Positions 11,283-60,410 of a DNA stretch of 64,000 nucleotides are shown in pieces. How positions within the stretch are numbered: the first letter of the stretch is position 1; the number at the start of each line of letters is the position of its first letter. The notes under the pieces are model-generated. The model did not search any database and was not told the DNA's origin. It was given only the letters and a program-made list of their open reading frames with translations. The translations under genes and the position numbers were made by a program. Source of the stretch: Dimargaris cristalligena (taxonomy: Eukaryota); contig ML002229.1 in assembly GCA_003614675.1 (NCBI GenBank), positions 1-64,000 of the forward strand, read 5' to 3'.

Positions 11283-14102
11283 ATGCATAATTTATCACTT
11301 ATACAAATGGTAGGCACGCCATTTCACCTAGTCTCAACTCGTTTCTGGCATATTCTTCCATTCTCCGAGCTAAAGGGCGCGGAGGGGTACGTCGTTGTAA
11401 TACCAGTTGACCCAGAGACTCTCACCCATGCTCACTTATTAAATCACATCGTTTGATATTTATTGATACCCTACCGCCATCCCCTTTTATAACTATAGAC
11501 TCTACGGTGCGCCTGCTTAATGGGCGTGCTCCACCTCTCCTTCATTGATGCTACCCAAGACTATTCCCGTGCTAGAAGCGCTGCGGCCAGCTCATATGAC
11601 GGGCGACGGAATGGCGTCTACTTCGATGATGAGTACCCCTATACCCCTGCCCGACGAGACTCGTACACACCCTACCGTACCAATAGTAACAACCCCAACC
11701 GGAATCGCTATGCGGAACCCTGGGAAACGGACCAAGCCTATCCGGAAAACGAGTATCGCCGATACTACGCCGACTACAATAGCTGGGGGCCCCCGTATAG
11801 CAGATATGGGTACAGGGATTACGATGAAGAGGAGGGTAGTCGGCGAAGGAGCTCCAGTTGGTACGTCCATCCCAATGCCTACCACTATTCCAGTATTAGG
11901 GTACCGCACCGTAGCTCCCAATACTCCTCTAGGGCTCACCCACCGCCCTACCCAAGTCAGCGGCTTCCACCTCCCTTGGAAAACGGTGGGGAAGAGGAGG
12001 AGGAGGAGGGTCCTCTTGCCATGCGGACCCGAGTACCACCCCATTCGTGGAACGTCCCTCGGACCCCTTATGGGGGGAGACCACCTACTTCATTTCAATT
12101 GGCGGAATCCCAGTATTCCGCTGCCGGTCCATTTTTACAGCCACCTAGACTGACCTCCCGGGGGTCGCTTCGAGGAGGGTCGTCGGCCACCTATTATTCC
12201 TCCTATCAGCCGCACCAGGGGCACGGGAGGTTGAACCTGGAAGAAGAATACCGGCAATCGGCGCTGATTGCCAGTGGGACGACGGCGGTCGAGTATACGG
12301 GCAACGAGTCGGATGGCTACGAAGAGGATGGCGAAGAAGAGAATGAAGATGAAGGAAATAAGGTGGTGGCGGAGAAAGACGGGGGCCCCTATGGACCAGC
12401 GGAGTGGGGTGAAGGATACCAAAACAGCCGAAATACTATGACTGACGCGCAGAAGGGGGAGGAAGAGGATGCCCATAATTATCTACCCGCTGCCCAAGCC
12501 AAGCCAGTCGGGGAAGCAGCGTCATATTACAACTTCCTGGACCAGAGCCACCCCTTCAACCGTAACCAGTATAATATCTACGGTAAGCAGCCGGCGGTAT
12601 CGCCCCAGGGACCGGTCAACAACAACCCCTTTGGGCCATCGTTACAGGTACCCGGATATTGTAGTTACCCCTCGGTCGCTGCCAGTTTGAGTAGCGCGGG
12701 CCTAAGTGAAATGATGGATCATCTGGGTATGGCGGAGCAGAAGACGGACCCCATCGACAACGACGGTAATGGCAATAATGGCAATGGCAGTGGTGATGAC
12801 CAAAACGAATCCGACGACGGTACGTCCTGGGCCGGCCGGTTCCTACGCCGGATTTCATCGGGGGCCAGCGCTTTAAAACCCCGGTGGTCATTTAAGCGGA
12901 CCCAATCGAACCCCAATATTGTCGTGACCGCCAGCAACGAGAGCGACCAGGGAGAAACTAAAGTGGCTAGCACGCCACGCGAAAAACGCCTAATTGCCAA
13001 GGAACGGGTGGATCCTAAACTTGTCCAAGTGCTGACGGAACGATCCAAGTAAGTGGTTGCTGTTGCTATTGTATTTTCTTGTCGGCCGAGTCTCTAGACA
13101 TCCATTTAATCCCAGCCGCTGCTTGGGGGGAGGGGTAGGCTCGTATTAATACTGAGTTGATAGAATAGGCGTCCGGGGCCCTTCTCTTCTACCACTGTCC
13201 CACCGGAACACTAAACTAACCGCTCTTCTATTTCCGTCGTATTGGCCTACTCTTATTTAATATAATTATATTTTAATTAACAACCATTCGAATTTAGGTT
13301 TGCCCTGGCTACCTACCTCCCATTCCAACACCACGGCTGCCATCTTATGCCGGTCGACCGTTCCGAGTTCGAAATTATTGAATCCATCACCAATTTCGAC
13401 AAATCGGTACACGGGTTTATCGGCTACTATAAACCCCGTAACGAGATTATCGTGGCGTTCCGGGGCACGACCGGGTCGGACCTCAAATCGTTTCGCACCG
13501 ACTTTAAGTTTACCAAGAAGCTCTGCCCCCCCTTCTGGCCCGACTCCGAGGTCCACTCGGGGTTCTGGGGGGCCGCCGAACATGCTAGTGGCCTGTTGTT
13601 ACGGTACATTAAGCAACTGGCGGATGAAGATCCCAGCCGACGCCTGGTGTTCATTGGCCATTCGTTGGGTGGTGCCATCGCCCAGTTGGTGGCCCTCCAT
13701 TTCGCCTTTAAGTACCTGGATTTGCTGCCCCGGATCGAAGTAACGTTACTGGGTCCGCCCCGGGCGGGTAACGCCAACTTCGTTAGTCACTACAATGATC
13801 TAGGTATCCCCACGTTCCGCGTGAACGTCGGTAACGATTACGTGCCCCAATTACCCCCGGCGTGGATGGGCTACCGCCATGTGGATATGGAAATCTACGT
13901 GTACAATAAGCTGGATTTGGTGGTGTATTGTCCCATGGACCGGATCACCTTGAAAACCGACCCCGACTGCGCCCAGAGAGTCAATTTTGGGAAAAGCAAC
14001 TCCCTTGACCACCGTATCTACTTTGGGGTCAGTCGCTGGGACCCGAAACATCGGGCCTCGAAACAAGGCAAGGGAAAAAATAATGCAGTCGCCGTCGCTT
14101 AA
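11283..14102 (+). CDS. Secreted class-3 lipase with very long low-complexity N-terminal region, 3 exons: ~11283-11309, 11499-13048, 13298-14102
   Basis: The intron 13049-13297 (GTAAGT...TTTAG) joins the 510-aa ORF in frame to the lipase ORF. Motifs IIVAFRGT, VHSGF, GHSLGG (Ser), NDYVPQLPP (Asp), LDHRIYFG (His). A small first exon gives MHNLSLIQM|TLRCACLMGVLHLSFIDA, a plausible signal peptide; the start exon is less certain. Confidence 0.8.
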
Positions 14103-16410: not shown

Positions 16411-17439
16411 TTAGAACAGCCGTGGAACCACCCGGGCCGGGTTCTTCAGAGCTAAATGTAGTTTGCCATTCCGCAATTCTAGATAAGGGACGGCCTCTGT
16501 AGTAGTAGTAGTTGTTGGAGACGAAGGGGGCACACTGCTGCTACTTATCACAAACGGATTGTAACTCGACCGAGGCGTGGTGTACTGGGGAAGCGGCGCG
16601 GGTGAGGAGGGTTGGTGGTGGTAATGGTGTCCCGCCGAATGATGCTGGGCCGGGGTTGGCAATGTGGGTGTGTTCTGTGGAACAGCGGGGCGTCGCTGCT
16701 GCCGGGAAGTTACCGACCGAGTCGAGGAAGCACCGGGAGTCGCCACTCCAAACATATAGTAATTCGGCCGGGTGGGGCGATACGAGACCGGGGCCACATA
16801 GGAGATGGTGTGGGTAGAGTGGAGGGGCGGCGAAGTCGAAGTAGTAGTCGATTTCCGGGGCGACAGGTCAATGGCCCGCAGGTCGCGCTGCAACCCATTC
16901 TGCAGGGTCCGTTTACGCTGGGGGTTCCAGTGAATGGGTTCGGCCTCGTTATTAGTCTCGGTAATCCCGTCACGCGCCCGTTTGCTGCGACGCGCTGTAA
17001 CCGGTGGGGCAGGGGCAGGGCTAATCGTAGTGGTAGTAGTGATCCTAGTAGTAGTCGTAGTAGCCGTGGTAGGGGCGGTGTTACAGCCCCGCTGAATACC
17101 TTGGGGAGCTGGTATGGGTACGGGTGGTCTCGTTGAGACAATGGATGGTTTCGCCAGGTTCACATGGTTCTCGGCTGGGGATGGTTTGGCCAGGGCGCAC
17201 TGGTGAAGGGAGGAACTATTTTTTAGGACGCGTGGGGTCGGTTTCGTGGGCGTTTTCGGCTCAGGCGTCCGTGTCGCAGCAATCGGAGGGGCGCGGTTGG
17301 ATGGTAGTGGGCCGGGCCGGGGTTTCACGGACCCAGCTGACTTATTAGGTAGAGCAGCAGAGCGCCGGGCTCGGGGGGGGCCGCGCATTATTATTCGAAG
17401 AAGAGGCCGCGGGTTTGGCTGGGTCCATCCCGTCCTCAA
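16411..17439 (-). CDS. Hypothetical Pro/Thr/Ser/Arg-rich protein; probably the 3' exon of a gene whose 5' part lies at ~17700-18000
   Basis: 342-codon open frame of low complexity with no recognisable domain. It has no ATG at its 5' end, and the upstream splice could not be resolved. Confidence 0.5.
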   Translation of the reverse strand: MRTGWTQPNPRPLLRIIMRGPPRARRSAALPNKSAGSVKPRPGPLPSNRAPPIAATRTPEPKTPTKPTPRVLKNSSSLHQCALAKPSPAENHVNLAKPSIVSTRPPVPIPAPQGIQRGCNTAPTTATTTTTRITTTTTISPAPAPPVTARRSKRARDGITETNNEAEPIHWNPQRKRTLQNGLQRDLRAIDLSPRKSTTTSTSPPLHSTHTISYVAPVSYRPTRPNYYMFGVATPGASSTRSVTSRQQRRPAVPQNTPTLPTPAQHHSAGHHYHHQPSSPAPLPQYTTPRSSYNPFVISSSSVPPSSPTTTTTTEAVPYLELRNGKLHLALKNPARVVPRLF

Positions 17440-18422
17440 CAGTGACCTTTCTGGACCGGAAGAAATAGGTGAGCTTCATGGCCAGAGGCAGTATATAGAA
17501 TGGGTGGTTTAATAAAGGGTAGGTATCTCCGGAATAGATAGGTTATTTACATTCAACGTATTAAAGGGTTAAGACGGCAATGGAAGATGCGCTGGTTAAT
17601 TAATGAATGGAAAGGAAGGCAATGTAATGGTGGTTAAAGGTGAAACTAAATAAATGGAAGGTCAGTGGAGCGGAAAGAGGATGCGCTGGTTATATATACG
17701 AGGGGGAAGGGCTATCCGGGATTGTCACGAGGCGGAAGGTACATATCGTGGGTGTCTGGTCTGGTCTGGCCTCGTCTAGCGTATGGGGGGAGTGGCTGCT
17801 AACTTCTGGTGGGAAGGCCGGGTCGGCTAACCAAGCAAGGGCGACGGGCAAATTGACTTGGTGGCACAGGTTCCTTCCGTAGCTATGTGGGAGCTGGTCA
17901 CACAGCTCAGACGTCTTCACAGCAGCTGGGGGGAGGAGTTCCGGACGGGCTGCAGGGCGAGGATAGTTTGCTGGTAAAAGGGGTCCTAAGCCAGAGGAGG
18001 CTTCCCTCTGCCCGGCGGTTTAAGTGGTACAGCGGCTTATGTTCCAACCAACCAGCCAATATAATACTTGGCCATATGGATTGTATTGAATCGAACAGTT
18101 AGTTGTGTTTCAGCGGCTGACTGAGGAAAAGGGGCTTGAATTAAACTTGGTGATAGGAGAAAGAGTCTCGGCCATTATAATCTGATAGAATGGCCGCGGT
18201 TTAACCTCTTTCTCTCTCAAACACCCCCATAAAAGACACAAGTGGCTCTGCCGAGACCATCAAAGCCACCCCCGATGGAGAAAGCCTGCCGTGGGACTTA
18301 ATGAGGGAGGGGAACTGGCCCCGCAACTGCGTTCCCCCAGGCGCAATACCCTAGGGCCAATGGAGGTGTTGTCAAGGGCACAGGTCCAGCTTGCCGTCAT
18401 CCCAGCTCTATTCATACTCCCC

Positions 18423-28158: not shown

Positions 28159-30109
28159 ATGGCGCCCAAACTGTTTATCACTTCGGCCCACGAATATACA
28201 GGTAACTAGCACAACAACTTTTCAGCACCGTCCCTCCCCCCTGACATTTCTAAACCGGCTGTATCAATCAATCAGATGGGATGGCCGGGTGAATCACTTT
28301 ATCCATCGTTTAATCGGGACATGAATCGGGCCACCGTCCGTGACTACTGACTTCCCCCCTATTATTCTTCTCCCTGGCCCCATTGTCTTTCCGTCGATCA
28401 CTAACGCCCATCCCATCCCTTTCCTTTTCCATATCCAAATTTACCCCCTTTTATCAACCCCGAATCCCCCCGGTTATCACCATGGCATCGACCCCCCAGG
28501 CTTCAAGATAGCCCAGTACATTCTCCAATTCCTGGCAGATTACCCGCGCCACCGCGGTGACGAAACTACCCCCCTAGACCCCGTTCTGGCCACGGGCCTG
28601 GAGCTCTTCGTGGGGTTACCCGATGGCCACTCGACCCAGGCCCGAGTCCTGGCCCAGTGGGGGGCCCACGTGGTCGAGTGCAGTGCCTCGGCCCCTTGGC
28701 CTTCCCAGCAGCCCCCCGCCGGGGAAACCGACTCCGTTCTTCCGGCATGGACGGGCATGCTCTCCGATACCCTTCGGGCCATGGACTACGTACTTATTGT
28801 GCCGTCCGCCCAACTAAACCGGGTCGGCCATACTCTGCAATGGATGGAAGCTTGTCGGGCCTGTCACGTACCCAACATCCTGCTGTGGTCGTCGATTTGT
28901 AATCAACAGACCAACTCCAAATATTTAAGCCAGTACCGACGACTGGAGCTGGCTTTGAGGGAGTTGGAGAACGCCCATTATTCCCCCACTACTACGACTA
29001 CGACTGCTACTGCTACCACCTCATCATCATCTACTCACTCGGGGCCGGCTCTTACCCGTCCGCCATTAAATTGGGCCATCGTGCGGACCGGTTGGTATAT
29101 GGAGTATCTCTACTTGCACCAAAGCCAAATCCAGACCCAGTCCCACCTGGCCCTGCCCATTCGGGCCGGCTACATGGCTCCCGTCCGACTCCGGGACGTG
29201 GCTATTGCGATTCTGAAAATCCTTGATCAAATGGCTTCTTTCGTGCACACCGGCCCGGGCGGCGGTGGCGCCCAGTCCTACCGCCGGACCTTCAATTTTA
29301 CTGGATCGGACCTTATGACCGGTCACTGGATGACCCAGGTGGCCAGCCAAACACTGCAAAAGCCCATCGAGTTCCGCCATACTTCATTGGATTCGACCTC
29401 CCAGTTTTTATTGGACCAACAACACCAGCACCTCCTCGTGCGACGGACCCCGTGGGCCACCAAGTCGGAGCATTTACCCAAGGCCGGGGCTGGGGCAGTG
29501 GACCCGCAGCCCTTGACCCTAACGGTCCCCCATTGCGATTCCGACTCCGGCTCGTCGGCTTCCTCGTCCCTCTCGGCCTCCTTGTCGCCGTCGGTGGAAA
29601 GTTCCCCCGTCCCCATTCCCCAACGCACTCTACCGCGGGCGGTAGCGGCCCTGGGCCGTCGACAGTTGGCCGATAATAATGACGCGGCGGGCCTCTCTAT
29701 GACTCCCCCTTCCGCGGTATTATTCACCGCCCGCCGGTGGCTCGTTCCAACCGCTTCGGCTACTTCCACACCCACCAACGAGGTCACCGGTGGCGGCGGT
29801 AGCGGGGGCGACCACCTCCTCCTCGATCTTCCCACCGATCGGTTCTCGTCCGCACTGGCGTCCCCGCGCGAGGGAAGCCTGCTAAACCACTTGGATCATC
29901 ATCAGCATCCACCCACCCACCCCATCAAATTAATCGGGGCGTTCGATATTGAATTTGTCCTGGAAATCTACGAAATGGCGCGGCGTAGCCGGTTCGATCT
30001 CATCACCGGCGATCTGGGGCGGGTATTGGGACGGGAACCGGAATCGCTGGGCACTTTCTTGAGTAAAAAACGGTCCGATTTCCTGCACCCGTTTTTAGAC
30101 GCCCGCTAA
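28159..30109 (+). CDS. NmrA-like / atypical SDR NAD(P)-binding protein, 2 exons: 28159-28201, 28500-30109
   Basis: MAPKLFITSAHEYTG|FKIAQYIL (Rossmann start with a degenerate Gly motif), WAIVRTGWYMEYL, MAPVRLRDVAIAI, FNFTGSDLMT, and C-terminal ITGDLGRVLGREPESL, typical of NmrA/QOR2-like proteins. Confidence 0.75.
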
Positions 30110-32516: not shown

Positions 32517-35500
32517 CTATAGAGACAGGCCGCCAATGGCCGGATCCAGTTCTTCGGGGTTGTAGTTGATGTCCTGTTTATACGATTCTGAATAAGTCAT
32601 GGTGCGCACCATACGGTGGATGATTACGCTCTTTGGAAACGGATTGATGACTTTGAAATGGGAGATGGAGAGACCCGTGGCGGTAAATTTCGGGATATGG
32701 AAAGACAGGCTAGGGTACGAAATTGGCCGGAAACCCACAAAAATAGTATTAATTATAGTTTTGCCGTTGGATGATAAGATGCCTTCAAATGCAGCTATGC
32801 TGAATATCGCCGTGTTAGTGGTATTGGAAATGGCCATAAAACCTACCTAATTGGCCCTAGTTCGGATGGGTGAAGTGAGGATGAATCCGAAAAGGCCTAG
32901 TTGAGTTTAATGTCCAGGGGGAGAAGAGCATTAGGGGTTGGTCATAAAATACGGTTAGATAATTAAAAGGGCGGAGGGAGGTGGTAGAAAACCACATTAA
33001 CAACCCTCTCTATCGCTAACTATACGCCATATAGTATTCCTCTATTTAGCTGATTACCTACCCTAAAGTCCAGGGTCCGTTCGGTTCCTCCGGGGTAATG
33101 GGGGAAGGTGTACCTCACACAGGCAGGATGGGGGTCAAACACTGAAGTCACCTGCAGGGCCTTTGTGGCGGGATAACGCGGGGAACTCGAGGGTAAAAAC
33201 TGGACTTCCGAAGTATCGAAAGGCAACGGGATACTAACCACGAGGTTTTCGGCCACGCGGCTTTCACTAAAATCACCCCGGAGTCGGAGATGAAAATCGA
33301 TCGAATAGCGGGTGGGTGGGGGTAGGGGGACCGGTGCGCTTGGGTCACAAAATGAAGCACTTAGAGCGGATCGAGCGTTTTGCGGTAGGGGCCGGGCGAA
33401 TGGACCGGCGATCAGCGAAGTACTGAGCGATCTAGCACCTGGGTAGCGCGGAACCGGGGAGGGGCGTAGGGGTTGCCATCGGATCAGCTCCGAAGGGTGG
33501 GGGAATAGGTCGGGTTTACTTTCCACAATATCGTCCAGAAAGCAGAACAGTCGGAATAGGACGGGCACCTCCCAAGAGACTCGGTAGCTAATGCGAGGGT
33601 TAGATAGAATGGGAGTAAGGATGGTGGTTAGGAGCCAAACTTGGGCGAGGGGTCTGGTAGGTCAGCAATTAACCAATATGTTAAAAATTGGCAAGATTGT
33701 AAATAAATCCGAGGCAATCCCCATATAATGTATTATGCCAGCCTAAGGCCGCTTACCTTAAAATGTCAAGTTGGTGCTGGGGTTGGGTGGGTGTAAATAC
33801 GTATATGGGTTGACGCATGTGGTTCGACCGCTTGATTACCATCGGATGAGTGGCAGTTTCGGAAAAAGGGATTACAGAAGGATGCAGCTCGGCCAGATCT
33901 GGTGGGATAAGATGCAGAAAATTAACAATAACGAGCAATACCGGTTAGTATATAGGACAAGTTGCTCGACTACTATCATAAGTCGCTAATGAGGATTTAA
34001 TAGATATTTAGGGCACAGGTATTATAAACCTACCGGGATAAATATCTTGGTGTACATGGTGGGGGGATAACCCGATTTCAATAGGAAGAAGGCACGCCAA
34101 ATCCGTTCGCAGACTGAGGACACCCTTGATTTCGGCACTATGGATTGATCCCTAAATATCGAGAATATCATGCAAAATGGATAATGATATTGAGGAAAGA
34201 TAGGTCTTGTATATAACTGTCAGCTGAGAGACTTGGATTAAATACGCACCCTATCCAGTACATATAGCATCACTTACCACAGCATCGAACTGGATATGCA
34301 CAGTCTCAATCAGGTCGAGGCTCACCGAGCCCGCCGGTGGATTTTCGGGGGGCGATGGGCTGGCAACTTGAGGGGATATTGGTAGAGAGGAGCTTAACGG
34401 CGGTGGCTCTGTGGCAGCGGCCTTATAGAAACAATTATTGAGGTAGTATAGCATTGAATACATTAGTACCCACATTTGCACAAAGAACTGGTATTAGCTG
34501 TTCCATAGCTGATGGTATTTGGCCAAGTCTGGGGGTGCTTTCCATCGCCCAAAACCTCCACGAATGGTTCAAGAAACACATTAATGTATACCATATAAAA
34601 CACACTTACTCCGGTAAGATCGCGTACAATCTCATCGTACCACGTGCGTATCAATGGGCCCTGGGCTCTAATTAGCGCAGGGAATATATTGCCAAGGTGT
34701 TTTTTCATACGACTGCTAAGCCGCATAAGGGCCGTCAAAGCGGTGACGACGCCCAACGAAAAGACGGCGGACCCCATGCCCGCCCGACTGGGGGGTCGTT
34801 CGCTGATGGTGAGGGAGCGTATGGAGCGACTACTACTGGCCAATATGCCCCCCATCTGGGCGGTAGACCGGGTGGGGGATGAACTGCTGCCCCCACTGGT
34901 ATCAGACCGCAGACTGGAGCTCAGTAGAACGGGATGGAGGAGCGGGGAGCCTAATACCGGCGTATTCGAGCGTGATCGGCCCGGGGCTGGCGGGGCTGTG
35001 GCGGCCGTAACTAGCGGGGGTGGATACGATGTAGTTGGGGTTGGTATCGATTTCTTCATCGGTAGTCCAGTTAGGGAGGTGGGCGGGGGAACTTGGCGGG
35101 AATGCAGGGTCTCCTCTTCGCCCATTCGCACCACCAAGTAAATACATTCGTCAACCAGAAAGTACACGAATTGAGTCACACCAACCGCGACGGTTCCACT
35201 GGACACGGGGGCTGGGGTCTGAAACTGGTGGAGTTTGGCTAGTAGAGGCGTAAGCTGGGTAGAGCCTGGGTACCATGTACCGTGCCGCCATTTAATTCAG
35301 ACATTGTTAATAACTTGAGAAAGTTAGACTATGAGCTCCCTTGAAACTGGATTTATCGTAATATCCCCCTCCCGACTTTTTCCGAGACAGCAGTACTACC
35401 ACCTCCTCGCCATCCCAGAGCCGAACCATCCGCAGCCGGTGGGCCATTTGGACAATGTAATAGGTAAATGAGCTCATGCTAGTATTGTATTGTATTGCAC

Positions 35501-35600
35501 AGAACGGACTAGCAACATGCCAGGCCGGGCGGTGTTTGGACTTACCGGTGGGCCCGATGAGCAGTTCCCCGTCTGCAGTGAAGACCAGTAACTGGCCCAT
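32517..35600 (-). CDS. Divergent adaptor-protein complex mu subunit (AP-4 mu-like), multi-exon
   Basis: N-terminal MGQLLVFTADGELL (longin-like start). Mu-homology-domain blocks: VSLDLIETVHIQFD, VAENLVVSIPLP, YTFPHYPGGTERTL, SLSFHIPKFTATGLSISHFKV, RMVRTMTYSESY. Not all exons resolved. Confidence 0.65.
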
Positions 35601-36364
35601 GGCAAGAGGGTTTTAAATGGCGCTGGGTTACGGCGAATATAGGAGGGAGGTGTAGGAAACTTTAAGCGAAGGGGGTATGGAGCAAGAAAAAACACACTAA
35701 GTAGACGAAAGAATGGTTGGCCCATGGGTGAGAATGACTGCTAGTTAAAAATGCCAGGCAGCTTAAGTTCCCAGTGGCCTGCGGCGAGTGGCGAGATCCA
35801 TAGGTATGTGACCTGGGGGGATTTCAAGCGGACCCTGAATCAAGGGGAAAAGGGGGAGGAAGAAGATGGGGATGAGGATGATGGGCCCGTGCCCGGTCAC
35901 ATGATTAACCGCCACTACCTCAGTTAAAATTGTAGTATCGTGAGCATGTCGGCGATCAGCTTTCGGTACCCGGTTATCAACTCACCCGGCAATTATTATG
36001 ACACAACTGATGATTACTGATTATTCCAACAATTGCAACAGATTCCAATTAATACGCCGAATCCCATGTACATGTTTCCATGCCTTCTAGAAGTAAATGC
36101 CCAACTAATGACTTCAGTTTTATGATAACAACCATGTGCCATGCCGATTTTATAATGATATTTTGAATTATGGAACGAAACCTGGCATGTTTATAACGAT
36201 TGATTCACGACCTCGGCTGGGGGAGCCCTATTCCATCTGGAAAGCAAAATGTACTTGTTCATAGCTCCTTTACATTTTCATAACCTGACTGAAATAACTA
36301 TTATTAGTTAATATTCTATTCTAAACATCGGTTTTCCTCTATATTCTGATACCTTCGGGAGATT

Positions 36365-37945
36365 TTAGATATCGAGTAATAGCTCATCGCGAATTGCGTC
36401 GGGGAGGAAGGGCCGCTGTACTCTCGGTCCTGGCAGAGCCTGCTTGAGCTGGGTTATATCTGCCAATATGCCTAGAACCGAGGCCCCTTCAAAATGGATA
36501 TAGAGTGGATTGTAAAGTGTATCCAGGCACAGCTGCCCCCAATCGTGGCCATTATTGACCGTCACCTGCCACAGTTTCCGCATCCTCCGCATCCCCTGGA
36601 GCAGTCCGAATTCATCGGCACAATAAATCAGTCTCTCCCGGTCGGTATCTTTCGGCACCCAGTCGGCAAAGCGACCGGGGGCCCGGTCATGGAGTCCGGT
36701 TTCCATGGCCCACAGCAAAGCCAGCTGCCGCAGTTCGGTGGGGAGACGGTGGGGGTCATTGCCCCTAGTAGGTATGTGGTTGAGCACCTGAATCAAGGCA
36801 TCGGCATTGCCTTCGGCCACTGCCAGGGCCACGATGAAGGTGGTGTAGTGGCGGTACAAACCGGTCCAGGCCGTGTCCATATCCACCAGATTGACATAGC
36901 GGCGGTGCCGGGGGTTGGTCAAAACGCCTATGCGAGGTGGGAGGGACCGGCCCAGCGAATCGCGGAACTCCACCTCCGCTAGCCGGTCCTGGAGCAGGTT
37001 CAAACTGGCCCGCAGGGTATCAAATTGGCCCCCCCGGATCAGACTCAGGATCGGAAAAGACTGAGCCTTTTGTAAGGGCGTCAGGGAATAGTATGCGACA
37101 TAATGCCAGCCCACCAGGAGTTCGCCACGGTGGCGGTTTCGGTAGTGGGCGAGGTAGGCCCGCGGACCGACGGGAAATTGTAACAGTTGGAGCTCATGTC
37201 CCTGGAGAATGCGGCTATAGAGAGTTTCGGTCCGATCCATAATACCGATAATTTCGTGACTCGCGAGGGAATAAAGGGCTACGGCCGATAACGCCAGCAG
37301 GGCGGAATCCGCGGCTTCCACCGATCCGTTACTAGAGCTGCTCAGTAGACTCGAGTATTTGCCATTATTCTACGAATTAGCCGTCATTATAAAAGCAGGA
37401 AGTGGATGTCATCGGGCCAAGATGCACAAATACACACGAAAACAAGTCAATGAGTCGGCTAATTGGCCAGGATGCGGTGTGGTACGACTTGAAACCCAAT
37501 TGGCCCACGGCTCCTCTTCCCAAATTAGGTATTACGGTCAGGTTAGCAGAGTAGGCCAGCAGGACACCACCCCCTTTTCCCTGAAACGGGAATTTGGGAT
37601 AATAGAAAGCATACTTACAATAATATCAACATGCTGCGCGGTTCCCCTGATTAAATGATCATGTAGTCGAGATGTCTGCCGCATGCGAGCGAGAGTCGGG
37701 GGGGCCATGTAGCCAAGCATTATCTTTCGAAGTTCCAAAGGAAGGTGGTCAAATTGGTTTCTTGAAGAGAGATGTTGGCTCGGTGGTGGTGATGGGTAAT
37801 TTATCGGTCGAGTGGCTGGGTATGGTGCAACAGCCTGTCTACGACTGTCCTTCGAATTCGAATTCGAAGAGTTAGCCAGGCCCGGTAAAGTAGCGGCTAT
37901 CAAAAGGACCCCCAAGGCACTCAGGAGAAGCCGCCACTTATCCAT
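36365..37945 (-). CDS. Secreted protein with an N-terminal F-box-like motif, 2 exons: 37945-37619, 37369-36365
   Basis: Signal peptide MDKWRLLLSALGVLLIAATLPGLA, then FDHLPLELRKIMLGYMAPPTLARMRQTSRLH. A phase-0 intron (GTAAGT...CGTAG) joins it in frame to the 318-aa ORF. Confidence 0.75.
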
Positions 37946-38555
37946 GTACACGATTCAAAATAGCCGAAAATGGAGTGAGTGGGAGAAATTAAAAACAGAC
38001 GGGCGGATGCAATGGCGTGATTGATGATGGAGATTTTCTGTATATATTTAGGGGCGAAGTTACATCTTTATATATAGATAATTCCCTTTTAGTACACAAA
38101 AAATCAAAAACAATAGTGCTGCATTGAGCAATTATAGAGATAATAGACTAAAATGATGCGCAGTTAAGCCTAGCCAGAGGATTTCATCGAAAATAAAATG
38201 TTGTACTTTGTATTCCCTATAGTCGATCCGATTTTTGGCAAGTGGCACCAGTAGTATGAAGGGATTGAGGGAGAGTAAAGGTGTTCTACATAACTATTAT
38301 TATAATATGCTAAACAAAATGTACCATTGGTGGCTAACAGAGAGCTACAGTATCTTCTTTTTGGGGATTTTATGCAACGTCGGAATGTCGCACGAGATGC
38401 AGTGTGAGAGGCCAATCGTATCGCTGACGATTAGCTGCCGCTGCCATTATACTTTAACTAGATCGCCTTTTATTTTCGTTTAACAGACTTAAATATATAG
38501 TTAAAGTCAGGGACTCTCCAATATAGCTCGCTGTCAGTAAATAGGATGCCGACTT

Positions 38556-38583
38556 TAATAATAATAATAATAATAATAATAAT
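38556..38583. repeat. (AAT)n microsatellite
   Basis: taataataataataataataataataat read directly. Confidence 0.9.
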
Positions 38584-39837
38584 ATTCATTGGTAATGTGC
38601 TTCAGAAGATGAGAAATAGGTGACTATCGCAGACTGTAGATGCATCCGAAAGTCCTCTCAGCACTATTATCCGTGAATGTTGTCATTTGAATATTTACAT
38701 GCCCAACCGCCACCCGTTGAGTAGTTCAAGGTCAACCACGTAGGAAGGACTCAAACGCCAGCGTAGCGGACACCTTTCCGTAGCAGTTGTTTTTGATTTC
38801 ACAGCTATTTGAATTATAATTATCCGACAAGTGTGTGTGTGTGGGAGGATAGGGGTTGTGCTTAATTTTAAAAGACTAGTGGGCGTATCAGTTGATTCCA
38901 AATTGGTCTGACCACCCGGCCAAATGAAAAAAAGGGGGTACTACGGCCGTGGACCAATACAACTTTTTTTACACCAATGTACCAAAACCAATGGGTAGAA
39001 CTAAAAGTTTCGGTATAACCAATTTTCCGGACGAAAGCTAACCATTGCCTCGGGGGGTAACCCGAAACGGCGCCCTAGTGAAACTTAGGCAGCGATGGCT
39101 AAAAATAATAACTGGGTCAGAGTTAGGGAAAGCGGAATCCTTTTTCTTGACTATATACTATTGGGGTAATGCAGAGTGGACCATATTTCCATCAATACAT
39201 AATGGAGAGAGGGGACGCTTATGGCCAATTGTGGGTGAGACGAGAGGGATAAAGACCTAGGATCCCGATCGATGGGTATCAGATACCTAATGCCCAAGCC
39301 AGCCGATGAGGAAAGGGCCCTGGCAGTTGGAAAGATATCGTGATAACAGCGCTTCCGTCGTCAGCCGGCATTGTGAAAGGGAAAATGTGAATAAAACCTA
39401 AAGTTCCCTATTTAGTCATAATTGCTGTAATTATCAGCAACCGTCGCCCCCAATGGGCAATGGTAATGTAACCGACCACACTAGTATTACGCCGCAGCGC
39501 TATAGGAGATTTGTGTAACAACCAGTTTGAGAGAGGGAGTGAGGACATTCCCCCGAGTTTAGTCAGCAGCCGTATACTTTAAAGTAAATTTCTCTTATTG
39601 ATTTCTCGCTTATAGAGTAAAACTATTCGACAGGCAACTGTAAGGTGTGCCTATCCCAATTGGCTGCTTTGGTGTGTTTCAAAAGGGTTTATTGTTTGAC
39701 ATTAACTATAGAAACAACGCAACGGCTTCTCTTTAAACGACAGCTACTTATTCACTAAAATTGGCCCACTATCCCATCCAGCAGACCTCATTTCATTAGT
39801 AGGATTAATCTTAATATCGGTACTATTATTCTTTGGC

Positions 39838-41184
39838 TTACAAGTAGATATCGGCCTGCTGCATCAACTCCCGGAACTCATAACGCATTTGGTCACAATA
39901 CGCGTCGAGGGGCAGGTCATTGCGATCGTATCCAAAGGGGTTTTCGATTTCCGCCGAGATGCCCTCCATACCGTAAAAGATAAAGGCGGAGAGGGCCATG
40001 ACGGGAACAAAAGACCAGCCCAGGGCCGGGAAGAGGACCATGGGAAGGGCCATAATGTAAAGGGTGATGATTTGCTTGAGATAGATCTTGAAGACCAGCG
40101 GGGACGGGGTGGTGAGGATCCGCTCGCAGGTCACGAAGACTTCCTGAAGGGCCTGGACCTGGCTGATCAAAGGAGCGATCAGAGTGGGACCAATCGGGCC
40201 ATCCGATATGGCCGTGACGGTGGTGTTGGCCTGATCGGGAGAAGAAGCAGGCGGGCTGGTAGGGGGACGACTGGCGGTCAAAGTACGGAGGTACAATTGG
40301 CGAATTAACAGCAGAGGCAAAAGGTTATCATCGCCGAGCAGACTGGCATTAACTGTGTGGCAGAGCGACGGGTCACCCAAGGGGGAAGCGGACAAAGGCG
40401 GGCTGCTGCTGTTTCCGCCGATGTTGGATGTCGGAGCGTTGGGGCCGTCATGGATTTCACGCAGGGCCTGCAAAATAAACGACCGCTCCCGCTCGGAATC
40501 GGTCCGGAAATAACCCGCCTTTTCGAGGGCGTGTCGGTGTTCTTGGGGCATAGCCTGCAGCGAGGCGGGATCGAGTAGAACTAGGAAATCGGCGTAGAAT
40601 AAGCCGTTTTCCAAACGGAGGTAGTGTTTCAAAGCAATTGCATAGGCGAGGGCCAGACGGGCGATGGTCAGATAGGCCGCTTTGGCTTCCGGTGAGGGAG
40701 TGGTGTCGGGCTCCGAAGAGGTAGACGAGGAGGAAGAGGAGGTGGAAGTCGTCGTCCGCACGGGCCCACCGAGCGCTTGGCGAACTTCGGGGTCAAGGGC
40801 CAGCGAGACCTGGCGTTGGATAGTACGCACGTGACTAAATAACGCGGACCACTGTTTACGGCCCTCCCAGTACCGGTCGTAGGCCTGGTTACTCCGGAAC
40901 CCAAGCATGAGCCCAAGGACCATGGACAATAGACTGACGAAATGACTGGCCATGCCACTCCGTTTGGCTTGGTTGGCCTCAGGGGTCGGGGTTCCCATCA
41001 CGAAGGCATAGGTAATGGCGTAGACAACGGTCAGGGTAATGGGCAGAAGCGCGCGGGGGAGGACGCTGCCCCGGATCGTGAAGAAGGTCCACGGCGGGCG
41101 GAGGGCCTCTAGGCTGTACTGTTGACACAGCTCCCAGGCGGACAGCTCGGTCAGGTCATCTTCATGGTCCGAATCGTTCGACAT
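39838..41184 (-). CDS. Bestrophin-like UPF0187/YneE-family anion channel
   Basis: Motifs LGLMLGFRSNQAYDRYWEGRKQW, CERILTTPSP and EIENPFGYDRNDLPLD, with hydrophobic helices. Intronless; ATG at 41184. Confidence 0.9.
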   Translation of the reverse strand: MSNDSDHEDDLTELSAWELCQQYSLEALRPPWTFFTIRGSVLPRALLPITLTVVYAITYAFVMGTPTPEANQAKRSGMASHFVSLLSMVLGLMLGFRSNQAYDRYWEGRKQWSALFSHVRTIQRQVSLALDPEVRQALGGPVRTTTSTSSSSSSTSSEPDTTPSPEAKAAYLTIARLALAYAIALKHYLRLENGLFYADFLVLLDPASLQAMPQEHRHALEKAGYFRTDSERERSFILQALREIHDGPNAPTSNIGGNSSSPPLSASPLGDPSLCHTVNASLLGDDNLLPLLLIRQLYLRTLTASRPPTSPPASSPDQANTTVTAISDGPIGPTLIAPLISQVQALQEVFVTCERILTTPSPLVFKIYLKQIITLYIMALPMVLFPALGWSFVPVMALSAFIFYGMEGISAEIENPFGYDRNDLPLDAYCDQMRYEFRELMQQADIYL

Positions 41185-41719
41185 GGCGGTGGTGGGCAGT
41201 AAGAGATTGCGAGCACCCAAGGGTAATAATGCCTATTAACAATACGCAGGGTGGAAAGAAGTCTTAGAGTTGAGGACAATACCAGTTCTCTTCCCAGCTA
41301 TTAAATACAAATGCATTCGCTATGAGGGGAGGGGCTAGCGGAGCCTCTCCTCCGTTCTTCATGGTGTATATCGGCCGTTGAATGCTTGGCGATGCAGCTG
41401 AGTATAGTCGTGTGAGTAGCGAGGCATATTCGCGGAGAGTAATAGACCAAATAAACTGTGGGAAGGGATTCGTCCGCTATTTTCCTTCACATTGCCTGGT
41501 CTTGGCGCTGGATAATCATATAATTATTATTATTTTTACTAGGACAAATACGAGTTCGGATCAATGACGTTTGGTTTATTGGAAGGGGGGAATATGGAGG
41601 TTGAATGGCTGAGCTGATTAGTAACATGTTGCATACATGAAACACCTCCCCGAACTCTAGGGCTTCTGACATGTAGCAAAAAACAATAATATATATATCC
41701 TCAGCAAACTCCAACACGT

Positions 41720-42887
41720 CTATGACCTATCTCGGCGGCTATCATGGCGATCCTCCGGGTCCCGTCTGGAATGGTGCGATCGGTGCCGCCGGGGGGAACG
41801 TGGCCGATAGCGATCAGGCGACCGACTCTGACGCCGGCTTTCATGACCGTGTCGCCGCTCTTCCGATGACCTATCGGACGGGGTTTCCCGGGGACGGTCG
41901 GGGTTACGGTCCCGGGGCTTGGCTGAAGCCGGCAAGGCTGACGATGGCGATGATGGTAGTGGTGGTGGGCGTGATGGTGATAGGGGCGGGGAAGTCGGCT
42001 GGCGGTGGTGGCGGGAAGTGGAGGAGCGAGAAGTCCGATCACGGCTCTGGTTTCGACGTCGGTGGCGCTCACTACGTTCGGAAGTCCGGTGACTGCGCTT
42101 ATCAGATTTGCTATCGGTTTGGCTACGCTTCTGCTTTTTAGCCTCCTTTTCCGCCTTCTTGAGCCGTTTGGCGGCCGCCCGTTGGGCCAGTAGTTTTTGC
42201 ATGTAGACCTGTTCCTGCTGCTTGATTAGGAACAGGGGGTCTTCGCGCACTTTGGCCTGGGTGTCCCGGAGACTGTTGGCGTTGGCGTGGGTGTTGCCCA
42301 GGGTCGAGAAATCTTCGATGCCCTGGATTCGTGGATAAGGGGGGGATTTTAAAAGGGAATATACCAGCAGTCGGGGAGTGTTAGTTACAGATGCTGCAAT
42401 TTAGTCGAGGTTGTCAAATTATATGGCCAAATAAGCCGACTCAATAATCTATATATATATATATATAGAGCGACCCTTATTGAGGAACGCCGATTATATT
42501 AATGCATAAATGTAGAAGAAAAATAGAGGGGTGAGGGCTTACCTTGGCTTCAGGGTCAGGTTGACGATCAAGTAGGGTATCGACTCTCCGGCGACCCAGC
42601 AGGTAATCTTCTCGTTCCTCATCGTTCTCCACCTCGCCCTGGGCGCCCATGCCCGTACCACCCCCGGTGTACATCCAGTCCAGGCGTTCGGATTTAGTCT
42701 TATGACCCGCGTTTTCTTGCAGCTGCTGTAGTTCTTCGAGGGCCCGTTCTTCGGCCCGCTCCTTCCGGAGCTGCTCGGTTTTGGCCTTCTCCTCCTCCGC
42801 GCGCTGTTCCGCTTTCCAGAGTTTCTCCTGGTTGCGGAACGTGAGCGGGTGCCACGATTTCTTCATGTTCAAGTCGCCGCCCCCCAT
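41720..42887 (-). CDS. CWC25: Pre-mRNA splicing factor Cwc25, 2 exons: 42887-42543, 42322-41720
   Basis: MGGGDLNMKKSWHP, ERLDWMY, EDYLLG, RDTQAKVREDPLFLIK, and an RS-rich C-terminus. Confidence 0.93.
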
Positions 42888-58061: not shown

Positions 58062-59819
58062 GGATGCTGATGCGGTAGGGTTTGCCCGGCCGACTCAGTT
58101 GGGTTGGACGATGGAGTCATCAGATATATTTTGGGGATTGGCTGGGCGTTAGTTGCCGCCTAATGTACCTGCTATACCTTATTACAATAAACGTCCATAT
58201 ATTAATAGAGACAGGTGGTTGATTTAAGTACCAGTAACACCCGTCATGTCGCCTACCAATAATTGAAGCAGCATGTGAGTCGAGTCTTCACGGTTGGGGT
58301 CATGGGATGTAAGCGAGGAAACCTAAATATCCGTTTCTGATGACGAACTCCCGATTGGGGAGAGGCAACCATGCCCTAAAGTGGGCTAAAAAGGCTTGGT
58401 CTGATACATGAAAATAGATGGGGGGAGGAGGAGGAGGAGGAGTGGCTCAATAACACTATTCGAAGCCCGCCTGATCCAGGTGAGGCAGCTGGCTAATCTA
58501 AAGGTGGCCATAACGGCCGTGTGCGCGACCGTTTCGGGTTACTTGGTACCTTACGCTCCACCCCCTCCAATTTTAGAGCGATCGATGGGAAGCCGTCGCT
58601 TCTTTTCGCTTTCTTCGACCCCTTCTTTATTGGCGTTGCTTGTGTGACGGGCGGGTCCGTGCCTCCCAGCTGACCACTTAGGCCAGCGAGTCCATCTTAA
58701 TCCAGAAGGAGGGTCGCGGCATTAGGTATAGAGGCGACGAGGGGTTGATCGGCCAGCTTCCCTCAAAATACACCTTCGCAACATAAAACACGGCTTTTCT
58801 TTTCTTGTTTAAAATAAAAACACTATTTTAAACCGCCTCGAGTTAGTAGCGGAGGAGGCTGAGCACCTCCCGTCTTCTCTATTTGTATTACTCGTTTCAG
58901 GTGATCAGGTGGGTTGTTCATTAACTTACACGTAGGTAACCGTTTCATCCTTACAATAGCGTTGCGGGAAAAGTCCCCCGTGCCAAGGGCAGTTCCTAAT
59001 CAGTAACGGGGGCCTCCACTAGACATTGGGGCATGTGCGATTGTAGATGAATAAAGTATTACAGTGGGAGTGGGCGACTGACTTCCGGTTTAGCATTTTT
59101 GTAACCCATCAATGATAGTTTACAGTGTTACACCTTTCTCTATATGGCAGAACCTTGCCTTCGCTTTTTGATGTTAGGGGGCTTGTGCAGCTGTTTCCTA
59201 TTTCAAACTTGCGCTACCGAAGCGACGAGTGTTTTCTGTATCGCTTTTCCCCCCCTGAGATCTAAAACAAAAACCACGAACCTCAGAGGTAAGGGTGTTT
59301 GATACCAAAATTAGATTAGGAAATCCTGCCGGTTTAGATGCGCCCTTGGGGTAACGAACCAGTGGGTGTCTGATCTATGCTAAAGCAAAGCAGAGGGGAA
59401 CAGAGAGTTTCACAGAGGATTGAAAAAGTCATTCGGAATATATGCTTCGCCCGTCGGCAAATACACCTCCTGTTCAGTGCCAAACGGAGCACCTGTCTGT
59501 AATCATTATAATAGTTGCAGCTGTTTGATAATAATATGACATTTATCCAGCCAATGATGTGATTGACAGCCCCAAACGCCCGTCTAAATGACTGGCCGTG
59601 CCTATATCCAAATCACTACTTTCTCTCTTGTGAGGTACTTGGGTTGGGAGGTCTATAAAAGGATCCCCCGCCCACCTTTTATTAGAACCATATCCCGCTC
59701 CCAACCATCGTCACCTGACTGTCGACCGCGCCATCAGCCCCGTCTACACCCCATACCACTACTTTCCTGCATTCCTAATCAGTTTCCGCCCCTTTTAACC
59801 CCTCCCACTCCTTGTCATC

Positions 59820-60410
59820 ATGAAGACCACCGCCCTCCTCGCCAGTTTTTTCGTCGCCGCTCTTGCTGGTGTTCAGGCCGGCCCCACCGTCGCCACTCAA
59901 ACCTGGTCAGTTTCGGAACTCGAAGCACTCGGCCCCCACGGTCATAATCCCATCATCGAGAAACTCAAAACCGCCGGTTCCGACGACGCCGAGTCCAAGG
60001 GCACCGTCGCCAGCCATTTCTACCAGAGAGAGCAACTCGGCATCCAGTCCCCCCGCCACTGGAAGTACTCGGCGGCCCTGTTGATCCTGATGGATAACTG
60101 TATCGCCGCTTTCCAACTGCAGCAGGGGCCCAGTCCCGCACTGGACCTGGTGGCAAATCCCGCTGGGGATCAGTCGGCAGACTCCATCGAACGGGTGTAC
60201 TTCCAGATTTTGGAGGGTCCAGCCGAGGCCGGGGGTCGCCATTGTGTGCCCACCCAGATTCATGGCGCGGCCCAGGGGGGGCCGTACCATATTCAGAGTT
60301 TCCGGAGCGACTCCTCGGATAGCATCGACGGCCTCCTTTTGCAATACATCCAGGAAAACCCCCTGATCCAGACCACCAACGCTGATGGTACCTCTTCAGC
60401 CAAGCTTTAA
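59820..60410 (+). CDS. Small secreted hypothetical protein (196 aa)
   Basis: Clear signal peptide MKTTALLASFFVAALAGVQA, GC3-rich codon use, and TATAAAA at ~59655. No recognised domain. Confidence 0.75.
   Translation: MKTTALLASFFVAALAGVQAGPTVATQTWSVSELEALGPHGHNPIIEKLKTAGSDDAESKGTVASHFYQREQLGIQSPRHWKYSAALLILMDNCIAAFQLQQGPSPALDLVANPAGDQSADSIERVYFQILEGPAEAGGRHCVPTQIHGAAQGGPYHIQSFRSDSSDSIDGLLLQYIQENPLIQTTNADGTSSAKL

Follow-up and report, generated by a model that had tools for sequence, protein, structure and literature searches.

A two-exon gene lies on the minus strand at positions 36365-37945 of contig ML002229.1 from Dimargaris cristalligena, within the 64-kb window (the whole stretch of 64,000 nucleotides that was analysed), and its spliced product is a protein of 443 aa. 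An earlier reading made from the letters alone (hereafter the sequence-only reading) had taken this product for a candidate secreted effector, in which a signal peptide is combined with an F-box-like motif and which hijacks the Skp1-Cullin-F-box (SCF) ubiquitin ligase of a host. The features of the locus that bear on this proposal are the following.

37619..37945, minus strand: exon 1 (P0001), 109 codons, with its ATG at 37945
37370..37618, minus strand: intron of 249 nt, with GTAAGT donor, CTAAT branch and TAG acceptor
36365..37369, minus strand: exon 2 (P0002), 334 codons plus stop; an orphan Leu/Arg-rich C-terminal region, the presumed target-binding part
37874..37945, minus strand: residues 1-24, signal-peptide-like N-terminus (MDKWR, hydrophobic core, PGLA; putative cleavage after Ala24)
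37766..37873, minus strand: residues 25-60, low-complexity S/N/P-rich linker, including (TTCGAA)x3 at 37851-37868
37637..37765, minus strand: residues 61-103, divergent F-box-like segment, with LP at residues 68-69 and predicted helices at 70-78, 84-88 and 90-103
36728..36745, minus strand: second LPxELR motif, HRLPTELRQLALLW, within exon 2
38067..38074, minus strand: TATA-box-like element, TATATAAA, 129 nt upstream of the ATG at 37945

Exon 1 ends exactly at the consensus donor (37618-37613), which is in phase with the exon-1 open reading frame (ORF), and the branch-like CTAAT at 37380 and the acceptor at 37372-37370 lead into exon 2 in phase 0. Such intron signals are common to other genes of the window, which show GTAAG donors, CTAAC or CTAAT branches and gaps of about 80-400 nt between exon ORFs. 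When exon 2 was searched against 5.8 billion clusters it matched one protein, KAJ1983604.1 of Dimargaris cristalligena (356 aa), which is named 'hypothetical protein H4R33_004684' in the database and whose splice junction, HVDII joined to NNGKYSS, is identical to that of the window. The splice that the sequence-only reading had drawn between the two exons is thus borne out by the consensus signals and by the same junction in one public annotation. We take the locus to be a genuine gene of two exons that is restricted to Dimargaris cristalligena. Throughout, each exon was analysed on its own. An extra intron that would remove the poorly scoring linker from exon 1 was considered and rejected, there being no consensus-type donor within exon 1; alternative 5' exons were rejected as well, consensus-type donors on the minus strand between 38600 and 36300 being limited to GTAAGT at 37618 and GTGTGT at 37437.

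KAJ1983604.1 differs from the window by one residue in the 356 that they share (N152D of exon 2, codon 36916-36914, Asn in the window), and this single difference indicates that the window is an isolate or assembly of Dimargaris cristalligena other than the source of KAJ1983604.1. No database protein for this gene was found from the window's own isolate or assembly, and exact look-ups in the protein collection found the unspliced 135-aa ORF, the 291-aa ATG-ORF and exon 1 all absent. Homologue searches with exon 1 recovered only KAJ1983604.1, by way of 22 shared residues, and no protein that includes residues 1-87.

Read from the ATG at 37945, the protein opens with MDKWR, continues with 19 uncharged residues from L6 to A24 (LLLSALGVLLIAATLPGLA) and then runs into NSS. 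Within the uncharged run a hydrophobic part, LLLSALGVLLIAATL, is followed by PGLA, giving a core of 15-19 residues. Lys and Arg stand before this core, a Pro-Gly helix breaker interrupts its end, and Gly and Ala occupy positions -3 and -1 relative to the putative cleavage site. AlphaFold2 (AF2) places a helix at residues 3-19 with a predicted local distance difference test score (pLDDT) of about 80. By a crude heuristic of our own, a signal-peptide-like start was passed by only 4 of the 131 ORFs of the window that begin with ATG and extend for at least 60 aa. The sequence-only reading had seen a strong signal peptide here, and by these features and this heuristic the n-, h- and c-regions of a signal-peptide-like segment are indeed present. 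In the linker that follows, the (TTCGAA)x3 repeat encodes NSNSNS and could vary in length between strains; length variation between strains is likewise possible for a (TAA)x9.7 microsatellite in the 5' intergenic region (38556-38584).

Beyond the linker, several lines of evidence point to an F-box. The string that had been quoted as matching an F-box pattern, FDHLPLELRKIMLGYMAPPTLARMRQTSRLH, is found exactly at residues 65-95, but the literal pattern is off, in that the Ile comes one position early and the expected 'YL' is 'YM'. The F-box consensus may be written LPLELRKIMLGYMAPPTLARMRQTSR, and this pattern is present in the exon-1 segment. A looser form of it matches a single time, at the exon-1 site, when all 127,996 six-frame positions of the window are scanned, and once in 2x10^7 random residues, a rarity that is optimistic because the pattern was written after the sequence had been seen. 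In the AF2 model three helices are placed directly after LP, in an F-box-like layout, with a low pLDDT of 49-63 there. A feature search of the ESM Atlas with residues 58-109 returned F-box clusters as the nearest neighbours, the first match scoring 0.91 (PF00646 in 58% of its members), and all ten of the ten best family-bearing matches fell in the same family or clan.

We also predicted the complex of this segment with Skp1. To obtain stand-ins for Skp1, we searched metagenome contigs with a short motif conserved in this protein; the scan yielded 118 loci, the ORFs of all of which were inspected; 30 of the 118 were intact at 140-230 aa, and 20 of these 30 were aligned, the alignment not being used by the complex predictor. 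The first stand-in (160 aa), in which Pfam recognises the Skp1_POZ and Skp1 domains, served as the partner. With residues 58-109 it gave an ESMFold2 complex score of 0.79, compared with 0.01 for the best of three controls. The mark applied was reached by 51 of 78 solved complexes as compared to 2 of 108 mismatched pairs and, in a eukaryotic benchmark, by 39 of 65 solved pairs without a like older complex as compared to 2 of 126 unrelated pairs. The runs share at least 93% of contacts with a partner pLDDT of at least 77, and the predicted interface lies between the C-terminal helices of the stand-in (residues 94-160) and residues 61-96 of the Dimargaris protein. Because F-box-Skp1 complexes have already been solved, the score expresses likeness to solved complexes and not binding of this copy. 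The complex prediction that the sequence-only reading had suggested as a check, here made with ESMFold2 and a stand-in Skp1, thus came out in favour of predicted docking.

Other results weigh against an F-box, and through it against a secreted SCF mimic. The suggested search with the Pfam F-box and F-box-like profiles, run per exon, gave no match: hmmscan against Pfam-A at E<=10 found no family in exon 1 (109 aa), nor in two sub-stretches of it that measure 50 and 57 aa, where it should be noted that HMMER filters discard most matches above about E 0.1 and that very weak Pfam matches may stay hidden. A phmmer search of exon 1 against PDB chains produced a chance-level row only (such rows had E 0.67-0.99 for the two exons). 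Foldseek, run on the low-confidence exon-1 AF2 model (pLDDT 61.7), returned three matches at E<=10, not one of which came within E<=0.001. Fbx4 (3l2o_B, E 8.8) was among these three weak matches and was not kept, since a second look with VIA-align put it below Z 2; the only chain kept belonged to a spliceosome (Z 2.5). As for the ESM Atlas search, the shared features are low (125 of 256), a third of shuffled proteins likewise get ten concordant matches, and the search is uncalibrated for parts of proteins. Finally, the Skp1 of the predicted complex is a metagenome stand-in and neither the parasite's nor the host's. The F-box claim therefore stands in so far as the ESM Atlas neighbours and the complex prediction carry it, and fails to find a Pfam match, a PDB sequence match or a significant fold match.

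The last three negatives favour a different explanation, by which the protein is a secreted or lumenal orphan, for example an extracellular or cell-wall protein, and the LPxEL segment is an F-box look-alike that never meets Skp1. The second LPxELR motif in exon 2 would fit this explanation, as it hints at a recurring helix-start motif and not a dedicated F-box, and a complex predictor can pass a pair by likeness alone. We nevertheless regard a look-alike as improbable. The predicted docking, with its wide separation from the controls, falls on the canonical C-terminal face of Skp1, and the ESM Atlas neighbours are uniformly F-box. The two Cys and two sequons of the whole protein give no sign of an extracellular fold. 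In addition, an N-terminal motif followed by a domain of about 330 aa is the usual layout of F-box proteins. On balance the predictions suggest that residues 61-103 are a divergent F-box-like domain that is not a member of the Pfam family, and it is likely, as far as models can tell, that the segment adopts a functional F-box fold able to bind Skp1.

The C-terminal region of 334 aa is Leu- and Arg-rich and contains both Cys of the protein and one N-X-S/T sequon. It has no Pfam family, no PDB relative and, by self-BLAST, no internal repeat, and when exon 2 was compared by phmmer with 1.84 billion representatives, the protein itself was the sole match. Its AF2 model (query P0003) has a pLDDT of 37.9 and is unusable; Foldseek on that model gave nothing at E<=0.001 and only scattered helical proteins, which is uninformative at such a pLDDT, and the ESM Atlas search with P0003 gave no usable match. 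The description of this part as an orphan domain of about 330 aa thus holds for the 334 residues, which are without relatives. The motif HRLPTELRQLALLW weakly resembles the first LPxELR motif (9 of 21 positions identical, E 0.27 in a single comparison), with a similar H..R....H context upstream, and could reflect an internal duplication or chance. By eye, parts of exon 2 (AEGNADALIQVLNH and others) had also looked like helical repeats of a degenerate ankyrin-like kind, an idea that was dropped because Pfam shows nothing and self-BLAST finds no internal repeat. A frame of 168 codons is open antisense to exon 2 (36476-36982, plus strand) and is probably not a gene, as such a frame is expected opposite a GC-rich third-position (GC3-rich) gene.

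Both the signal-peptide-like start and the F-box-like segment belong to the protein only if translation begins far enough upstream. Codon log-odds were trained on eleven Pfam-supported ORFs of the window, which themselves score +0.15 to +0.44. Exon 2, at +0.265 with a GC3 of 0.66, resembles the housekeeping genes of the window, and shows a coding signal from the acceptor onwards, whereas its first in-frame ATG (37240) comes only 43 codons later; therefore an upstream exon is required to supply the start. The reading frame of exon 1 opens at 37954 and has in-frame Met codons at 1, 76, 80 and 88, of which Met1 is the sole ATG upstream of the F-box-like segment. Since the minus strand contains no ATG from 38065 to 37945, a transcript starting downstream of TATATAAA would have its first AUG at 37945.

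A start at Met76, Met80 or Met88 would leave a cytosolic orphan with neither signal peptide nor complete F-box, the upstream frame being 5' untranslated region (UTR), and several observations speak for it and against secretion. The sole public model, KAJ1983604.1, begins at Met88, past both the signal peptide and the motif, and residues 1-87 occur in no database protein. Exon 1 has a codon score of -0.167 per codon and a GC3 of 0.47, which is non-coding-like, and nowhere in the gene are the codon scores lower than in the windows over the linker (-0.36 to -0.73 per codon). None of the 276 in-frame 109-codon windows of the training genes scores as low as exon 1, and 7% of 552 off-frame windows score as high. 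From 37945 to 37720, moreover, 225 nt are free of ATG in all frames, and a 5' UTR would look alike. At position -3, Met76 has A and Met1 has T.

We find a downstream start quite unlikely all the same. The frame that spans 87 codons upstream of Met88 would be open by coincidence (chance about 0.015 at 3 stop codons in 64), as would a textbook signal-peptide-like start at the very first ATG, given how few ORFs of the window pass the heuristic, and the likeness to an F-box seen by the language model as well as by the complex predictor. A TATA-like element lies upstream of Met1. Met76 sits inside the first predicted F-box helix, so the F-box-like behaviour of residues 61-96 is sensible only with translation from Met1. 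The public model, furthermore, appears to be ab initio and without RNA for Dimargaris cristalligena: a paper on low-coverage genomes, which include isolates of this species, reports RNA for another species only (PMC9866270), and the start at Met88 would thus be an ab initio choice if KAJ1983604.1 stems from that project. Judged from these features of the sequence, translation probably starts at Met1.

Our leading reading, which we hold tentatively, is that the protein is a secreted effector that mimics an SCF subunit. It would consist of a signal peptide that looks cleavable, a disordered linker rich in Ser and Pro, a divergent F-box and the 334-aa orphan domain. After entering the secretory pathway of the parasite and losing its signal by cleavage, it would be released at the haustorial interface and pass into the cytoplasm of the mucoralean host, where its F-box would dock on host Skp1 and its C-terminal domain would present one or more putative target proteins of the host to the host SCF ubiquitin ligase for degradation. 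The reasons for preferring this reading are the basic residues directly next to the hydrophobic core, the cleavable look of the c-region, the restriction of the gene to one species and the biotrophic parasitic life of the organism. On the last point, the sequence-only reading had guessed at a haustorial mycoparasite; the organism is Dimargaris cristalligena, the lifestyle is as guessed, and the species is listed among sequenced biotrophic mycoparasites in one paper (PMC6784888). In its fullest form, a fungus-against-fungus hijacker of SCF that is secreted by the Sec route, binds the Skp1 of its mucoralean host and marks host proteins by means of a new 334-aa target-binding domain, the proposal is rather doubtful.

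Further points tell against an effector. The mature protein would be large (about 419 aa) and has only 2 Cys. The gene, as far as the window and the database search extend, is a single one that lies in no effector-type genomic compartment. An expanded lineage-specific family had been suggested, but the search, which covered database proteins and the window, found only the protein itself among the 1.84 billion representatives and no paralogue within the 64 kb; paralogues that lack annotation may exist elsewhere in the genome. The net charge is +1 before the hydrophobic run (D, K, R), and A24 is followed by 15 residues with a net charge of +2 (K, D, R, R). Because these flanking charges are nearly balanced, the run may be an uncleaved membrane anchor that leaves the C-terminus cytoplasmic.

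An anchored protein of this kind would be endogenous: held in the membrane of the endoplasmic reticulum (ER) or another compartment, it would keep its F-box and C-terminal domain in the cytoplasm of the parasite and act there as an SCF substrate adaptor. The F-box evidence fits such an adaptor equally well, and no delivery into another cell is needed, which removes the topological paradox of a secreted F-box. The 19 uncharged residues could span a membrane and have a positive net charge on either side, the charges after A24 being followed by a Pro-rich hinge. Such a layout of charges occurs in N-out, C-in anchors, for example those of microsomal P450s. A housekeeping neighbourhood and the lack of a gene family likewise suit an endogenous protein. 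The transmembrane isoform of FBXW7 is the beta isoform, at the ER. This isoform, which is drawn with a transmembrane domain in a published figure (PMC8573206), offers a precedent in that a hydrophobic N-terminal segment lies ahead of the F-box, but it comes from an animal, ends in a WD40 domain and has no homology to the protein described here. Against an anchor, K3 and R5 abut the core while the downstream charges begin only 8 residues after it, P21-G22 and the small residues at -3 and -1 make a typical signal-peptidase c-region, and the AF2 helix stops at residue 19. We therefore rate a membrane-anchored endogenous adaptor as unlikely, and keep the secreted effector in first place.

Agrobacterium VirF is an F-box effector as well and shares with Ralstonia RipG/GALA (PMC4617103) and Legionella AnkB (PMC2916131) the arrangement of an N-terminal F-box and a variable target-binding domain, which is also the arrangement predicted here. 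In all three the F-box recruits SCF in the cytoplasm of another organism, as it would in the effector reading. These bacterial effectors differ in that type III or type IV systems inject them into the host, and in that they lack a Sec-type signal peptide and carry leucine-rich repeat (LRR) or ankyrin C-terminal domains, and searches of PDB chains and of the 1.84 billion representatives found no homology between them and the Dimargaris protein. Similarly, SSGP-71 of the Hessian fly (Mayetiola destructor) is reported, along with Ralstonia RipG7, to interact with host Skp proteins, and it is secreted by a eukaryotic parasite, has an N-terminal F-box with a C-terminal target-binding domain and is thought to mimic host F-box proteins (PMC4617103). 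SSGP-71 differs in coming from an insect, in its LRR C-terminus and in belonging to a gene family, whereas the Dimargaris protein comes from a fungus, has an orphan region without recognisable repeats and is encoded by a single gene; no sequence similarity was detected between the two.

Among fungi, ascomycete proteins without a secretion signal are described as having an N-terminal L-P-x-E-R motif of remote F-box type (PMC3914424). These and other endogenous fungal F-box proteins resemble the Dimargaris protein in combining an N-terminal LPxE(L/R) with lineage-specific C-terminal regions. The ascomycete proteins differ in lacking a secretion signal and in belonging to the Ascomycota, whereas the Dimargaris motif follows a signal-peptide-like segment in a zoopagomycete. 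The role of the F-box domain in eukaryotic pathogenicity is called unclear in one paper (PMC8146833), and in two others the F-box effectors cited are bacterial only (PMC13382533, PMC8602583). The phrase 'secreted F-box' is absent from the full texts searched, about 8.4 million in number, and among the matches listed for F-box effectors and fungi (20 of 49) there was no fungal F-box effector, going by titles and the starts of abstracts. An architecture that joins a Sec signal to an F-box in a fungal parasite would therefore appear to be at least unusual.

Should the effector reading be true, no fungus would previously have been reported to possess a secreted F-box mimic effector. F-box mimicry is well known in bacteria, in viruses and in at least one insect and is hardly documented from eukaryotic microbes, and we found no report of its use by a fungus attacking a fungus. 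The effectors of biotrophic mycoparasites among early-diverging fungi are essentially unknown, and the protein would offer a concrete molecule for how Dimargaris controls its mucoralean host and would point to an independent origin of SCF hijacking in fungi. If it were instead a membrane-anchored endogenous adaptor, it would be a modest addition to the diverse F-box repertoire of fungi. The analysis also suggests that complex prediction can recover a divergent F-box that Pfam misses, and that an informative N-terminus may be cut off by ab initio annotation.

The surroundings of the gene had been described as AT-rich and gene-sparse. Indeed, the 5' intergenic stretch is 1.9 kb long with 39-45% GC, upstream of which lies a bestrophin gene (39841-41232), and the 3' gap is about 1.1 kb. 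Comparable AT-rich intergenic stretches occur elsewhere in the window, however, and the window as a whole is gene-dense, its 64 kb carrying at least 20 housekeeping genes that Pfam recognises, so that the description applies to the 5' flank and not to the region. These genes include Vts1/SAM, CHORD-CS, class-3 lipase, glycine-cleavage H, GT4 glycosyltransferase, SDR and adaptor-complex subunit genes, together with CWC25, FAR-17a/AIG1, enoyl-CoA hydratase, RPA1, kynureninase, WD40 proteins and methyltransferases. A tRNA scan of 33000-42000 found none.

Long open frames without a Pfam family (E<=0.001) are present at 11499-13049 (plus strand, 517 aa), 16414-17475 (minus strand, 354 aa) and 28325-30106 (plus strand, 594 aa), and may be regarded as further candidate lineage-specific genes in this housekeeping region. 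Finally, an ORF of 196 aa at 59820-60407 (plus strand) starts with MKTTALLASFFVAALAGVQAG and has a signal-peptide-like start that is cleaner than that of the gene studied here. It belongs to no Pfam family (searched as the ORF at 59799-60407) and, by its sequence, probably encodes a small protein that the parasite secretes.

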